A stretch of 64,000 nucleotides of DNA. It comes from Catajapyx aquilonaris (taxonomy: Eukaryota). The position numbers and the translations under genes were made by a program. The notes under the pieces were generated by a model. It saw nothing but the letters and a program-made list of their open reading frames with translations. It was not told the DNA's origin and did not search any database. Below are positions 1 to 64,000 of the stretch, piece after piece. Where the stretch lies: positions 62,001 through 126,000 of the forward strand of contig KZ537961.1 in the NCBI GenBank assembly GCA_000934665.2. The letters are read 5' to 3'. Each line of letters starts with the position of its first letter. The stretch's first letter is position 1.

Positions 1-760
1 GGCGCAGGTTCTACCCAGAAAGAGAGGCTGTGGAATATCAAGATCACCTATATTGAATGCAACTCGCTCTCAAGAGGTGAGGTTGTAGATCAACAATGTG
101 GGACATTGTTGACCAATTTTGGTTTCAGCTCCTGATGGATGTTTGCAGTACTTTCCGTTGTCTACTGGACGAGTTGAGATGTTCAACTTTCCTAATCCGC
201 CGCATTTGGCCATGTTGGACTATTCTATATGTGTCAGGAAAGACGATGGGGCCTGCACTATTGTGGTACGTTGGATTCACACCAGTGTCGCTAGTCGCTG
301 TCTAATCCTGCGCATGCGCATTTCAGTGGCGGCCATGTCCGGAGATAGAAAACGCGTTTTTCTTCACCGGTACCGAAAAGACTGGCCGAAATGAGGACTA
401 CATGTTGCAAACTACCAGTACCGAATCGATTGACCCCATGTCATCTGAGATGACCAGCTCAGGCGCTGACCCAAACCCTTCAATGATGACCACGAACCTA
501 TGCATGACCGACTATGTCACTGTGATGACCGACAGAGTTGACCGATTCTGCGGTAACAAATTGGGCGAGGTCAACCAAATTAAATGTATGTACCATACTG
601 TATTCAGTACACAATTTTATACATATTTAATGGCCATTTATTTTCAGCGAGTTCGCGACCTTTCACACTTCGGGTCAAGACGAATGAGGAGGAGACCATG
701 AGTAAGGACATTGGAAACACCGGTTTTTGTCTAATGTGGCGGCAGGAACCATGTTCTTAG
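1..760 (+). CDS. G0: 3' part (last 4 exons) of a CUB-domain-like family gene, 5' end outside window
   Basis: Exons 1-76, 129-265, 327-585, 648-760 with GT-AG introns read ..WNIKITYIECNSLSR/APDGCLQYF..PHLAMLDYSICVRK../WRPC..CMTDYV..DRFCG../SRPFTLRVKT..NTGFCLMWRQEPCS*; AATAAA at 912-917. Confidence 0.85.
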
Positions 761-1678
761 ACTCAGTACAATACTAACTGTGAATACAACGAAGAGCATT
801 TATGAAAACTGGACAGGTTGGTCACAAAGTAGCCTATCGTGGATAATATCTGGCGTGAACTAGCGACTACTTTCAAACGTTATTTATATTTCAATCCCAA
901 ATTAACAGAGCAATAAACAACCTGAAAATCTTGTTCGGTTACGTTATAATTTATTCCCCCCCCCCCCCCCCCCCNTTATTCCCCCCCCCCCTCTCCACCA
1001 ATGGAATGTTTCTCATTGACCTCAATGTAACAAAGACAATAAATAGCTCGACTTTCATTATGATTTATAGCGTATTCCTCCTAATAAGTGTGTGCATACT
1101 GTACCTCGCAAGTCAAGGGCTGCATAATATTACAGCATGTAATTTATCAGCTGATTACTGAACAATATTGGTTACCCCAGTTTTATATAACTGGAACAAT
1201 CAAGACTGAACCTGACAAAACAGGCTGTAAATGATTACTGGTACTTTGAGAGAAGTTTAACCTTGTTTACTTCTGAGCTAATTAATCATGACCTTTGTTG
1301 TGCTATTTTAAATGCTAATTCATTTAAAAAATGTGTTACTTACATTATGAGGACGTCATTGCACTAGTAACAATATGCTGGTACTGTGCAGTATACACTA
1401 CTTGTACTTCCCATTTGAAGGAAGTGTCTGTCTAACGGGTATGGCTGTACCCCATATGACAACAATGTAACTGAATGAGTTACATGAAACGAGGTCAATT
1501 CACTAAAATCGTACAATCAATGTTACATTGGTAAAAATTTGACAAAAATATAAATTCAGCTGTAATATTTATTAGTGTTATTTCACTGAAAAAATAAAAA
1601 CATCTTTCCTCTTTACAATGTGCATAAATTATGTTAAATAAATAGTTACAACCGGTTTACAACACATGTGCCTCCAAA

Positions 1679-3211
1679 TCATGGGCTTTGATTCCACTTG
1701 AAACAAAATCCTGTATTTTCCTCATCCTCCATTTCCTGGTCGTCCGTCTTGATCCGGACCACAAAAGGTGCCGACGAAGCTGCAAAAAAAAAAAATAATA
1801 ATCAAAAATATAACTATGTAAATATATCAACCTGATGTGACTTACTAGAAATGGGCGATCCTCCTAAGTCAGCACCGCAGAACCGATCAGATGAATTGGG
1901 TGGTGTCCTTTCCCAAGTGGCCTGAGGGATGACCATGTAGTCGTCGATGCAACCCTCGGTCTGGACCATCGGAGACGACGTGGTCCTATTGGCTTTGGGA
2001 ATGCCGCTTATGAAGAAGTCTCCAGAGGTGCATTCGGCCCATTGTATCCGGTTCATCCCAGCTTCCTTTCTGACACATATGCCGTAAGCCAGGTTGGCCA
2101 GATGAGGTGAATGGTTGTAGTTGAACACGCTGACTTGTCCGGTAGGACCAGTGAAGTACTGCAAGCAACCGTCCGGAGCTGTCCGGGATAATAATATAAT
2201 TAGTGCAAATATTAATAAAAGGCAATTATATTACCTCTAGTTAGTGAATTGCATTCAATCATGGTCATCATCACTTTCCAGGTCCGGTCCATATTTTGGT
2301 TCGGGTCTAAGATGACGTTGAGGGTCACGGTGTCGCTGGTACCGTAGTCCACATATACTATAAGGAAAATACCAGGATGAACACCCTAGATGGTGATAGA
2401 GGTCTAACTTACAGTGTTGGCCGCTCAGATTTCCACATAATGTAGGGACAGCTGTCCCGTCTGCTCCAGATATTGTCAGCCTGTCCTGCAGACACTGTCC
2501 TTCTTGGTTCAGCTCCATAGATGGACCTCCAACAGTGAACACCTCGAAGTCCAGTCTCACTTGACACGTACTAGGCGCCTATAGGAAACAAATTAGTGCA
2601 ATCGGCAGTGTTGTTCGTGCTTCAAAGACAATACCTTCCTAATGCGAATCTGGCAGTAGTCCGGTACACGAGGAGAAAACCCGTGGGGGTAACCAGGGTT
2701 GATAAAAGCTGTATTGTTGACATTCACTGTGGCACTACATGTCGCACGTACTGGAATTTGCACAAAAAGTGGGCAGGAAAGTGTAGTGCCGTAAAATACG
2801 GCGCCGGTACCGAAAGGGTGTGTAAAATAAAATTTAGGCGTACTTACAAAGGCAACAAACACCAAACCCTCCTGCACAATTTCCGTGTACTTGTCCACCT
2901 AAACGTTCACAACCAGTCCTATCAAGAAAGATGGGCTTGTCAACAATGGTTAAGTCAAATGCTACAACACATACCTAGAGTGGCATAACCCGTTTTCACC
3001 ACCAGGTCCTTTACATGCACTTCCATCGATCCTCATGATTGCCAACAAAACTGCAACAATGTAATTGTTACTACCAGCAATTGCCAACAATTGATGTTCA
3101 CTTACATCGTTCTTTCTGGCTGGTGTTGACTTTTTTGCTGGTACCCAGTACATTGTAGCCGGTTAATAACACCGCACTGATGCACACTAACACTATTACA
3201 AACTTGGCCAT
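1679..3211 (-). CDS. G1: secreted CUB-domain-like protein with N-terminal Cys-rich module, 9 exons, divergent member
   Basis: MAKFVIVLVCISAVLLTG signal peptide; exons GSACKGPGGENGLCHS / GCERLGGQVHGNCAGGFGVCC / FINPGYP / CQVRLDFE..TLCGNLSGQH / APDGCLQYF..HLANLAYGICVRKE / DRFCG / NTGFCFKWNQSP*; GT-AG introns in compatible phases. Confidence 0.85.
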
Positions 3212-61667: not shown

Positions 61668-62866
61668 TATTATTATTATTATTATTATTATTATTATTAT
61701 TATTATTATTATTATTATTATTATTATATTTAGTTTACCCCGTGATGAACCTTATGGGTGCTATAGGGGGGTGGCATACCACCATCAGTTATATATATAT
61801 ATATATATATATATATATATATATATATATATAGGGTGTCCCTAAATGATTGTCAACATTTGAAAGTTGCTTAATTTCTATTAGTTGCGGTGTGCAATGA
61901 CAAGACAGACATAGAATGAAAGAGCACATTTGGGAGTTTTTATTGCACACACTAGAAGTGCTCAATATGAGCACCTTTCGTCACACGACATGATAGTCTA
62001 ATTCTCTACACAGGCCAGCATGTCTGATGTGATTGATTCCACAGCAGCAACAATCCTGCGTTTCAACTCACACAGGCTGGTAGGTAGCCGTGGTACGAAG
62101 ACCTGGTCCTTTACATATACCCTGAGGGAAAAAAGTCACATGGGGTGAGGTCGGGAGACCTTGGCGGCCACTGGAGAAAACCCAGATCTTGCTGACCGGC
62201 ATGCCCGATCCGCCAATCCTTGCCCTTGCAAAGGCATCCCGTCGTCTGAAACTTCTGGAACCACCGTTGAATTATTGTAGGGAGGGGCGTAACGTCCTCC
62301 GTACTGTCGCCGTAAGGCCTGCTGAACAGTAACTACCGAACCAAGCTTCGCAAACTGCAGGACACGGAACGTTTTCTGTTCGGGAGACACCATTTTGTGG
62401 AGTGGCCCTGTGTGCCTCGCGGCAAAGTGCGGAACCAACTTTTCTGTGTGCAATAAAAACTCCCAAATGTGCTCTTTCGTTCTATGTCTGTCTTGTCATT
62501 GCACACCGCATCTAATAGAAATTAAGCAACTTTCAAAAGTTGACAATCATTTAGGGACACCCTGTATATATATACATATATTGTATACAGTATTTTCTGC
62601 TTCATTCTCCGGTGCAAGGAAACAGGGACAATGGGAAAGGATAGGGATTTTTGGGGAGGGAACAGGTGTGCAAGGTGCAATGTCGTAGCTAATGGGTCAT
62701 GTGTTGTTCCCCAGGAGGTTAGGTTGCCAGACACCTCCTTATTGGTGCAGGTCAGAGACCCTCCCGACGCAGGTGAAAGGAAAGTTCCCCAGGCGGGGAT
62801 CGAACCTGGGGCCTTTCACTCAGCAAGCCGTGACGTTTCCATCACGGCCACCACACCTCCCCTTAA
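61668..62866 (-). mobile_element. Full-length family C SINE with (TAA)n tail, interrupted by a mariner-type element
   Basis: tRNA head at about 62790-62863, (TTA)n at 61664-61727 on plus strand, 9-bp TSD GGCAGTTAT at 61659-61667 and 62867-62875. Confidence 0.75.
61832..62564 (-). mobile_element. Internally deleted Tc1/mariner-superfamily transposon (rosa/maT-like) in a (TA)n tract
   Basis: About 120-bp TIRs starting (C/T)AGGGTGTCCCTAAATGATTGTCAAC, TA flanks; remnants of N-terminal MVSPEQKTFRVLQFAKLGSVVTVQ (DUF4817-like HTH) and C-terminal WPPRSPDLTPCDFF..YVKDQV..GAHIEH. Confidence 0.9.
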
Positions 62867-63431
62867 GGCAGTTATCACTTATTGAATGAGTCTTCACAAA
62901 ATTACTCACTGCATGGGAATAGCAAGTTCCATAATATTCTCCGTCATTCCGCTAAAAAAATAAAATGATTATTACCGAAGACAAATTAATAATATTGATC
63001 GACGCACTTGTCAACCATTGATGTAGAGGCTATAACACACTTCATCGAGTAATATGGACTCCAATGCACTGGCCTACAGGTCTTAAGTCGCCGAATAGCA
63101 CCAGCAAGGTAATGGCGGATTACCTCCACGACCAGCCTCTTCCGCCCGGATCTACCGATGATCTCCCTTATAGGCCATTGAAACTACAATGTCGCTCCAG
63201 TTTTCTCGGTTGTCAATATCCTGAGTAATGAGGCTGCAGTCCAGGGCACATCTTTAAACATGTGATGGTTTCATGACAAACGCACCTTACACATGAACCT
63301 GAATTATTGCACCCCTAATTCTCTAACGTTAAGGCCCATTATTACGCATAATTTATTATAATATTGCAGAAGGTACATTTTGCATCAAGAGTGCGCTGTG
63401 CAGCAGTAGTGAGCCGCAGTTCAATGCAGGG

Positions 63432-64000
63432 TCATGCCTGCCAGTATGTCAAGCAGAATCCAACGTTGTCTTTATCACCGCTTGCGGTTTCCAAAGCGTC
63501 TGTTTCCACATGAATGGCGAATGGTTTGGCAGAAGCTGAAAGTCAAATTATTGTAGGTTTCTCTCCAATCAAGTGAAAATCTGCATAAGACACTTACTTT
63601 TAATGGGCTGGTTCGGCGAAGCAGTCTGGTCAGAAGAGGCCTGACGATTGAGAGCAGTCTCACAGAAAACAGTATCTGAATAACCCGGCGGCCCCCCGGT
63701 AGCATCAAGAATTTCTTCTCTTCCCAACATTTGAATGTAATCCTTCTCGCAATTAGTGTCTTGTAAAGCGATGGCGGTAATTGTGGCATCTCCACTCATG
63801 GAGAAGGATTTATCATCGCACACTTTCCACTGCCAAAAATGTGACATAGCCGGTGTTTCATTTGAGGGTCTTTTTGTACCTTACATGGTATACATACCGT
63901 AATGCTGTCCCTTCCAACTTCCCTCCTCACGCATGAAGTGTACTTCAAATTGGCCAAATGAGGTGGCAGACTGGGATTGTATCCAAGTATTTTCACTTGC
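63432..64000 (-). CDS. G20: 3' part (exons 7-9) of another family member, 5' end outside window
   Basis: ILGYNPSLPPHLANLKYTSCVRRE / WKVCDDKSFSMSGDA..DYIQMLGR..VFCET / KPFAIHVETD..NVGFCLTYWQA*; FCG>FCE change may indicate decay. Confidence 0.75.

Follow-up and report, generated by a model that had tools for sequence, protein, structure and literature searches.

We analysed a 64,000-base stretch of the genome of Catajapyx aquilonaris (contig KZ537961.1, positions 62,001-126,000 of the forward strand). The whole stretch is called the window below, and all coordinates are window positions 1-64,000. It contained a tandem array of predicted genes for small secreted proteins with two CUB domains, which we assigned to the family PF26080. 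The array was apparent from the list of stop-to-stop open reading frames (ORFs), where short peptide motifs were repeated on the minus strand every ~1.5-3 kb; the G+C content was 36-47% across the window. The units were collected by tblastn with exon peptides of one hand-built copy and then with every match as the query, and also by per-exon hidden Markov models (HMMs) run over all six frames. The two rounds of tblastn together with the per-exon HMMs yielded 22 units (U01-U22) in the 64-kb window and nothing further. Chance resemblance was excluded because exon matches reached E-values as low as 1e-51. A first-pass annotation of the same DNA had reported 21 paralogs and three relics; its dense array stood, and the count was corrected to 19 gene-sized units plus three relics (U10, U13, and U21). 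U01 was on the plus strand at the left edge and U02-U22 were all on the minus strand, with exon 7 present in 20 of the 22. As had been noticed before, the array was cut on both sides (U01 began within exon 6 and U22 within exon 7), and it continues beyond both window edges.

The reference gene model was built by eye from U16 (43638-45216, minus strand). It had nine exons (45216-45120, 45065-44987, 44933-44863, 44800-44694, 44633-44471, 44404-44291, 44231-44083, 44016-43797, and 43738-43638), all introns were GT-AG, and the predicted protein was 366 residues long. A hydrophobic N-terminal exon was followed by a six-cysteine module, formed by two small exons together and ending in GVCC, then by CUB1 in three exons (motifs NDTYFQNPNYPS, ICQ[IV]R[LI]DF, and LCG) and by CUB2 in another three (motifs PDGCLQYY, PPHLANL, C-x-x-DYIQ, FCG, and GFCL-x-Y). 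In a phase-aware splice-site search, acceptors, donors, and phases corresponded in position between copies for almost every exon of the array, in keeping with the shared exon structure described in the first-pass annotation. The exceptions to the GT-AG pattern of U16 were U02, which had no intron 7, and U17 and U19, which had a GC donor after exon 7 (47186 and 54885, respectively). The missing intron of U02 (junction 2041-2042) looked like an intron loss. Downstream of the stop codon, AATAAA or ATTAAA was found at a distance of 42-151 bases in 17 of the 20 units having exon 9. These poly(A)-type signals agreed with real 3' ends, though paralogs share them by descent.

The N-termini took three forms. 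Namely, a signal exon plus the two-exon six-cysteine module was found in U08, U11, U12, U14, U15, U16, U18, and U20; an exon-3-type module with different 5' exons was found in U02-U06; and a signal exon leading straight to CUB1, with no cysteine module, was found in U07, U09, U13, U17, and U19. Thus, the difference in N-termini and module content that the earlier annotation had pointed out was real, with the cysteine module present in 15 units and missing in five (the 5' ends of U01 and U22 were beyond the window). The full architecture of signal peptide, six-cysteine module, and two CUB domains was present in U08, U11, U12, U15, U16, U18, and U20. N-terminal exons that were hydrophobic and had a donor in the correct phase were seen in U06, U07, U08, U09, U11, U12, U13, and U15-U20 and tentatively in U02, and signal-like ORFs were also located upstream of U04 and U05. 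The predicted proteins stopped just after CUB2 and had no anchor. With such first exons and no anchor, the products would be secreted, as had been proposed.

The family was identified through outside relatives. With the ORF covering exons 7 and 8 as the query, phmmer found 49 proteins at E <= 0.001 (best identity 40%), and the named ones were uncharacterised or "CUB domain-containing" proteins of Nymphon, Artemia, Allacma, Orchesella, Limulus, Tigriopus, and Argulus; a word-based protein search with the same ORF against longer proteins gave no match. The outside relatives showed an equal layout, with a signal peptide, a six-cysteine module, and two domains. A profile made from 25 of them retrieved 28 proteins, and all 28 carried the precomputed assignment PF26080 (CUB_animal). 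The corresponding ESM Atlas clusters were named "Animal CUB domain-containing protein" (PF26080 CUB_animal), were mostly from Arthropoda, and were 96-98% PF26080. When the outside proteins were compared with the spliced units by blastp, E-values went down to 8e-57 over 220-325 residues; U16 was 36.5% identical over 263 columns to the Allacma fusca protein CAG7640711.1 (P0033). Judged by similarity and architecture, the predicted window genes belong to PF26080. Other examples of the family were Limulus polyphemus XP_013790667.2 (P0085) and Artemia franciscana XP_065575462.1 (P0011), as well as records from Argulus, Tigriopus, and Nymphon. Like the array genes, these relatives encoded a signal peptide, a GVCC-ending six-cysteine module, CUB1, and CUB2, and they were 30-41% identical to them from end to end. 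Unlike them, five array units had no cysteine module. Annotation of the named relatives went no further than "uncharacterised" or "CUB domain-containing", as the first-pass annotation had said of similar arthropod proteins. The exon 7 alignment from the window also retrieved seven short metagenome loci, with one copy visible in the longest (L001, 6.5 kb), and two of the metagenome loci (L001 and L002) had an exon layout in common with the array.

The generic Pfam CUB model (PF00431) had no match at E <= 0.01 in 14 window ORFs with array exons, nor even at E <= 10 in three of the window ORFs, a weak test because these ORFs were single exons or read-through ORFs. Among 17 relatives, four scored above the 21.4-bit cut-off of PF00431 and two more were just under it, and the relatives' profile A1 weakly matched CUB sequences of cubilin (E 7e-4) and C1r (0.04). 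The fold of a window CUB1 was predicted from a 183-residue ORF (44268-44819, minus strand), which spans CUB1 of U16 and also translates two introns that stay in frame. Its AlphaFold2 model had a mean predicted local distance difference test (pLDDT) score of 78.6, with low confidence in the intron-coded stretches. Among the PDB matches listed by Foldseek for this model, all but one low-ranked row were CUB-containing entries, including MASP-2 at 1.7e-5 and a spermadhesin with a target-normalised template modelling (TM) score of 0.71. The full-length P0033, modelled with the relatives' alignment (pLDDT 78.4, predicted TM score 0.77), had as its best Foldseek match the tandem-CUB fragment PCPE-1 CUB1CUB2 (5.7e-11), followed by neuropilin a1a2, cubilin, MASPs, and C1r/C1s. 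The fold of the window CUB2 was covered solely through the 36.5% identity to P0033. Since the two structure predictions agreed, the CUB reading of the earlier annotation is sound at the level of predicted models. In the P0033 model, the six-cysteine module had high confidence (pLDDT 84-96) and consisted of one helix and four short strands. Its cysteine spacing presumably resembles that of a clip domain; as a candidate, the clip domain was rejected, with no Pfam family found at the module of P0033 or P0053 at E <= 10.

PF26080 is a known Pfam entry, and no characterised member of it was found in literature and database searches. No paper was found that used PF26080, CUB_animal, or IPR058698, and broader literature on CUB together with arthropods or crustaceans gave nothing specific among the matches listed.

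Ten of the 22 units gave complete models from ATG to stop with 311-371 residues (U07, U08, U09, U11, U12, U15, U16, U17, U18, and U20). Another four (U02, U03, U05, and U06) were open from exon 3 to the stop, two were open but cut by a window edge (U01 and U22), and six were defective (U04, U10, U13, U14, U19, and U21), which confirmed the pseudogenes seen in the first pass. Selection on the copies was measured as omega, the ratio of non-synonymous to synonymous divergence, from pairwise Nei-Gojobori counts for whole genes, for strand versus non-strand columns, and by exon; the strand columns were set by the secondary structure of the P0033 model, independently of variability. Whole-gene omega was 0.2-0.55 with a median of 0.32 (57 pairs with synonymous divergence, dS, below 1.5). 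Over seven phylogenetically independent pairs, the pooled pN/pS was 0.30 in strands versus 0.59 elsewhere (odds ratio 1.74, Fisher p = 1.1e-4). In the 12 intact copies, exon 7 was the most conserved, with 74% mean pairwise amino-acid identity, and exon 8 was the least conserved, with 46% and with indels in 43 of its 104 columns. Substitutions and indels piled up in the loops, chiefly in exon 8 of CUB2, in line with the loop differences reported before; exon 8 omega was 0.26-0.70 (eight pairs). The scaffold of beta-strands, cysteines, and exon 7 was kept by purifying selection and, therefore, the genes have been functional. For the loops, two explanations remained side by side: they were either relaxed or diversified, and no positive selection was demonstrated. 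The description of the array as rapidly diversifying was thus supported only in part: constraint was weaker in the loops (0.59 versus 0.30), omega over whole genes was 0.2-0.55, and no value was clearly above 1.

These data also bear on the idea that the array is mostly a graveyard, with one or a few working genes and many copies drifting to pseudogenes. Six visibly defective units out of 22 are what it would predict, and a conserved protein would be expected to show a whole-gene omega lower than 0.2-0.55. However, 14 units kept open frames and phased splice sites though their dS often exceeded 1, omega in strand columns was 0.05-0.46 depending on the pair, and 75 columns were invariant in the 12 intact copies, including all 12 CUB cysteines. 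The latter (six per CUB) constitute the shared cysteine skeleton already recognised in the first pass. We accordingly gave the graveyard idea little probability.

The origin of the copies was approached with a maximum-likelihood tree of the 17 units of sufficient length and 28 outside proteins. All placed units but one formed a single clade (16 of 17; SH-like approximate likelihood ratio test, SH-aLRT, 98) separate from all 28 outside proteins, and the remaining unit, U02, was placed beside P0002 and P0033. Because of this clade, most of the array is, as far as the tree goes, a lineage-specific expansion, a reading qualified by the fact that the outside proteins included no close relative of the source species. 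The 16-unit clade had no close outside counterpart in PF26080, and the best outside identity (~41%) was to U02, the nearest of all units to the outside relatives. Pairwise dS went from 0.08 (U14/U15) to well over 1 and, therefore, the duplications were of many ages, including the young duplicates noted earlier.

Self-comparison of the window revealed how individual copies were related. U04 and U05 were tandem twins (9037-11428 versus 11811-14160, 83% identity). Further along, a two-gene block consisting of a U17-type and a U18-type gene had been copied as a unit (46411-53853 versus 54030-60827), with its segments 46411-49039 and 51016-53853 matching 54030-57069 and 57738-60827 at 85-90%. One of the four genes resulting from this block duplication (U19) was later broken. 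Other pieces of the self-comparison linked U09 and U10 with U13 and U14, and U09 and U10 were chimeras of the sort noted in the first-pass annotation. In U09, exons 4 and 6 were U13-like (98% and 94%), exons 5 and 7 were U11-like (98%), and halves of a U13-type exon 5 were retained as intronic debris (26070-26174 and 25607-25666). U10 began with a U08-like part (exon 3 and the first part of exon 4; 96-97%) and passed directly into U14-like exons 8-9 (~82%). U14 and U15 were 88% identical over 2 kb; their centre, from exon 4 to exon 8 including introns, was 96-98% identical and both ends were 62-88%.

We also considered whether several copies could be assembly or haplotype artefacts, an objection that the earlier annotation had raised itself. 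The sequence had isolated N bases at 975 and 57506 and a possible 1-base indel in the signal exon of U14. On the other hand, there was no near-identical pair, since even the closest one (U14/U15) reached only 88% over 2 kb with flanks of 62-88%, and each unit had its own indels and introns. On these grounds the artefact explanation was rejected as hardly credible.

The pair U18/U20 combined high overall similarity with one divergent patch. Exons 2-4, 6, 7, and 9 were 91-97% identical (97% for exon 7) and introns were 80-99% identical, with 90% for introns 7 and 8, whereas exon 8 was only 68% identical. The divergent patch (58242-58011 in U20) started ~17 codons into exon 8 and ended ~12 bases before the donor, and within it the DYIQ and FCG motifs formed islands of identity. 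Since dS of exon 8 was 0.66 versus a divergence of ~0.1 in the flanking introns, the patch had another history than the rest of the gene. It was either replaced from an unseen paralog or escaped homogenisation. A donor for it was sought in the window, where the nearest exon 8 was only 78% identical; any donor must therefore be sought beyond the window, unless the patches are of old date. As judged from these alignments, the mosaics, the block duplications, and the exon 8 patch show recombination or gene conversion among the copies. Overall, the data supported an array whose genes are duplicated, lost, and recombined or converted, much as the first-pass annotation had put it under the term of birth-and-death evolution. 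In mechanistic terms, the array grew through single-gene and two-gene block duplication and lost copies through stops, frameshifts, and deletions, and its copies exchanged sequence through either unequal crossing-over or gene conversion.

The variable part of the proteins was then compared with the ligand-binding part of known CUB domains. The calcium ligands of CUB domains are a Glu/Asp/Asp set on loops L5 and L9. In CUB2 of the array family, the Asp of the motif C-x-x-D-Y/F was invariant in 25 of 25 relatives and present in 16 of 17 units, and the Asp of a T-D motif before the last strand was present in 12 of 17 units. The hypervariable CUB2 segments were located on both sides of these two motifs. 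According to a structural account (PMC8051872), tandem CUB proteins of known structure build their ligand site from the odd-numbered loops that bind calcium (L5, L9). With moderate confidence, we read the array as tandem genes for soluble secreted PF26080 double-CUB proteins that act as extracellular binders, with specificity differing between paralogs. Each gene would produce a small soluble secreted protein with a signal peptide, usually a six-cysteine module with the GVCC end, and two CUB domains, and the paralogs would differ in what the loop face of CUB2 binds. The proposed difference in specificity follows from the position of the variable segments, because they flank motifs that resemble acidic calcium-site residues. 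With its variation centred on one exon, the array marks out the segment that is the probable contact with the ligand, and its paralogs may supply naturally occurring variants for work on binding.

Several points weigh against this reading. The T-D Asp was replaced by Asn in five of the 17 units (U03-U07), and the first acidic position varied among units and was not conserved in outside relatives. Moreover, the calcium site was mapped by motif likeness and residue numbering rather than by superposition. No omega was clearly above 1 in the pairwise counts by gene, strand class, or exon, and values of ~1 to 2 were seen only in short exons or with small counts, such as in the U14/U15 loops (19.3 non-synonymous versus 4.7 synonymous). 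The loop variability may therefore be mere relaxation. The contrast between strands and loops is affected too, since three of the seven pooled pairs contained a defective copy (U04, U14, or U19), which inflates omega. The defective share of the array (6/22) is a further point against the reading. Finally, all splice models were predictions from DNA sequence, the signal peptides were called by eye, and membership in PF26080 was judged through similarity to proteins carrying that family.

A stronger version of the proposal is that the array is a recognition repertoire, in which the ~190 bp exon 8 patch, covering the loops round the putative CUB2 calcium site, is kept different or swapped by conversion as the rest is homogenised. 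We consider this improbable. If true, a family of secreted arthropod proteins would generate its binding diversity by combination, with a logic akin to that of other invertebrate recognition families. In a more ordinary scenario, the paralogs would be matrix, cuticle, moulting-fluid, or gut-lumen proteins split by tissue or stage, with loops that are unconstrained and give no specificity. Loop omega below 1 in most pairs fits such a division of labour, and so does the variation of 5' exons and upstream regions between subgroups, as diverged regulation would predict. A cuticle protein gene was even located inside the array (5205-5876), but a single neighbouring gene is weak evidence. However, the variation was uneven over the loops, being focused on exon 8 and on the exon 9 loop of CUB2, and simple relaxation left unexplained a divergent U18/U20 patch between 90%-identical introns. 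We regard this scenario as possible though rather unlikely, and binding by paralogs of differing specificity as the reading to be preferred.

The vertebrate tandem-CUB binders PCPE-1 (CUB1CUB2), neuropilin (a1a2), cubilin, and C1r/C1s/MASP were the best structural matches of the two-domain P0033 model and of the window CUB1, and the array proteins would resemble PCPE-1, neuropilin a1a2, or cubilin most in their mode of action. The calcium loops that form the ligand site of these proteins (PMC8051872) offer a working model for the variable CUB2 loops of the array. However, sequence identity between the two groups was only 9-21%. The array CUBs have six cysteines each and a long insert in CUB2, which sets them apart from the vertebrate tandem-CUB proteins, and the EGF, NTR, protease, or membrane parts of the latter are missing. 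Calcium binding is putative in the array, in contrast to the calcium-binding vertebrate CUBs, and the vertebrate tandem-CUB proteins are not multi-copy arrays.

Spermadhesins are a small multigene family. Similar to the array products, they are small secreted proteins made only of CUB, and a spermadhesin chain aligned to the U16 CUB1 model with a TM of 0.71. The array genes were nevertheless rejected as spermadhesins, since they encode two CUB domains in 311-371 residues and come from an arthropod, whereas spermadhesins have a single CUB of ~110-130 residues and are mammalian proteins of ungulate seminal plasma. Spermadhesins are also described as not binding calcium (PMC8051872).

Closer to the source species, in the genome paper of the springtail Orchesella cincta, "CUB domain containing proteins" rank as one of the ten largest lineage-specific families, which have 34-71 genes each (PMC4987106). 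The nearest named relatives of the window genes were springtail proteins as well. The Orchesella cincta family is likened here by name. Because of this listing, a related lineage already has a published expansion of CUB genes. The first-pass annotation could not tell whether such a system had been described, and our answer is that, given the Pfam entry PF26080 and the published springtail listing, this kind of system is not undescribed. PF26080 double-CUB proteins span the arthropods (sea spider, horseshoe crab, branchiopod, copepod, fish louse, and springtails), and lineage-specific tandem expansion of secreted binding-domain families is a pattern already familiar in arthropod genomes. Varying the surface loops on a constant scaffold is likewise a frequent route by which animals produce families of binding proteins. 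The array is a real tandem expansion, ordinary in kind, of a known but unstudied family.

The individual units were as follows, all on the minus strand except for the first. U01 (8-760, plus strand) was the 3' part of a divergent-type gene, cut by the left edge and convergently oriented to U02, with exons 6-9 open and GT-AG sites. U02 (1679-2918) had exons 3-9 open with exons 7 and 8 fused, and U03 (6712-8107) also had exons 3-9 open. In U04 (9241-10652), exons 3-9 were present and a stop codon in exon 6 made the copy defective; in its tandem twin U05 (12018-13419), exons 3-9 were open and a signal-like ORF was located upstream within 13578-13799. U06 (14503-16260) had exons 3-9 open, an exon-2-like mini-exon (15946-15969), and a signal-like first exon (16082-16260), where a DPNxPAY peptide was repeated ~3x between the signal sequence and the cysteine module. 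This repeat was confined to U06, and the other units were without it. U07 (17694-19003) was complete with seven exons and 311 residues, its signal exon leading directly to CUB1 with no cysteine module, and U08 (19377-20985) was complete with nine exons and 358 residues.

The mosaic U09 (24076-26795) was complete with seven exons and 319 residues. U10 (27449-28116) was a relic that had lost CUB1 and exon 7 through a deletion between exons 4 and 8. U11 (30189-32565; 368 residues) and U12 (33267-34917; 367 residues) were complete with nine exons each. Long trinucleotide microsatellite runs were present in intron 5 of both U09 (~25690-25880) and U11 (~31595-31790), where they yielded homopolymer-like ORFs in all frames, and 349 bases around these microsatellites were 98% identical between the two units. 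The relic U13 (35990-37202) consisted of a signal exon and exons 4-7 only, with exon 5 frameshifted, a stop in exon 6, and no exons 8-9. In U14 (37873-39521), exons 2-9 were open, the signal exon was frameshifted relative to U15, and Ala replaced the family-invariant Asp of the C-x-x-D-Y motif; this unit was probably decaying, or else it reflected an assembly error.

U15 (41129-42824) was complete with nine exons and 371 residues. Beyond the reference copy U16, the divergent-type U17 (46700-48685) had no cysteine module and was complete with seven exons and 315 residues, provided that the GC donor after exon 7 is used. U18 (51123-52958) was complete with nine exons and 357 residues. U19 (54329-56730) was a defective U17-type copy with a frameshift in exon 7 and stops in exons 8 and 9. 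U20 (57844-59924), which is a twin of U18 outside the divergent patch in exon 8, was complete with nine exons and 371 residues. The relic U21 (61419-62953) retained a fragment of exon 2, exon 3, and the first part of exon 4, and repeat-rich DNA separated these remains. U22 (63432-64000) had part of exon 7 and exons 8 and 9 open and was cut by the right edge.

Other sequence between the units included the cuticle protein ORF mentioned above (5205-5876, plus strand), which was located between U02 and U03. It was of the RR type (Pfam Chitin_bind_4, E = 6.5e-20), and its best named relatives were insect and springtail "cuticle protein 19.8-like" proteins with up to ~74% identity. These matches identify the DNA as arthropod and place it no more narrowly than hexapod-like. 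No tRNA-like gene turned up in the window, and Pfam gave no match for 12 transposon-like or repeat ORFs between units. Beside the relic U21, two ORFs with similar translations on opposite strands (61789-61980, minus; 62326-62688, plus) flanked transposase-like ORFs (62111-62495, minus), and this stretch looked like a degraded DNA transposon. In addition, a dispersed element of ~300 bases, recognised by similar ORF translations, recurred between units at 53775-54105, 61120-61351, and 62522-62889.

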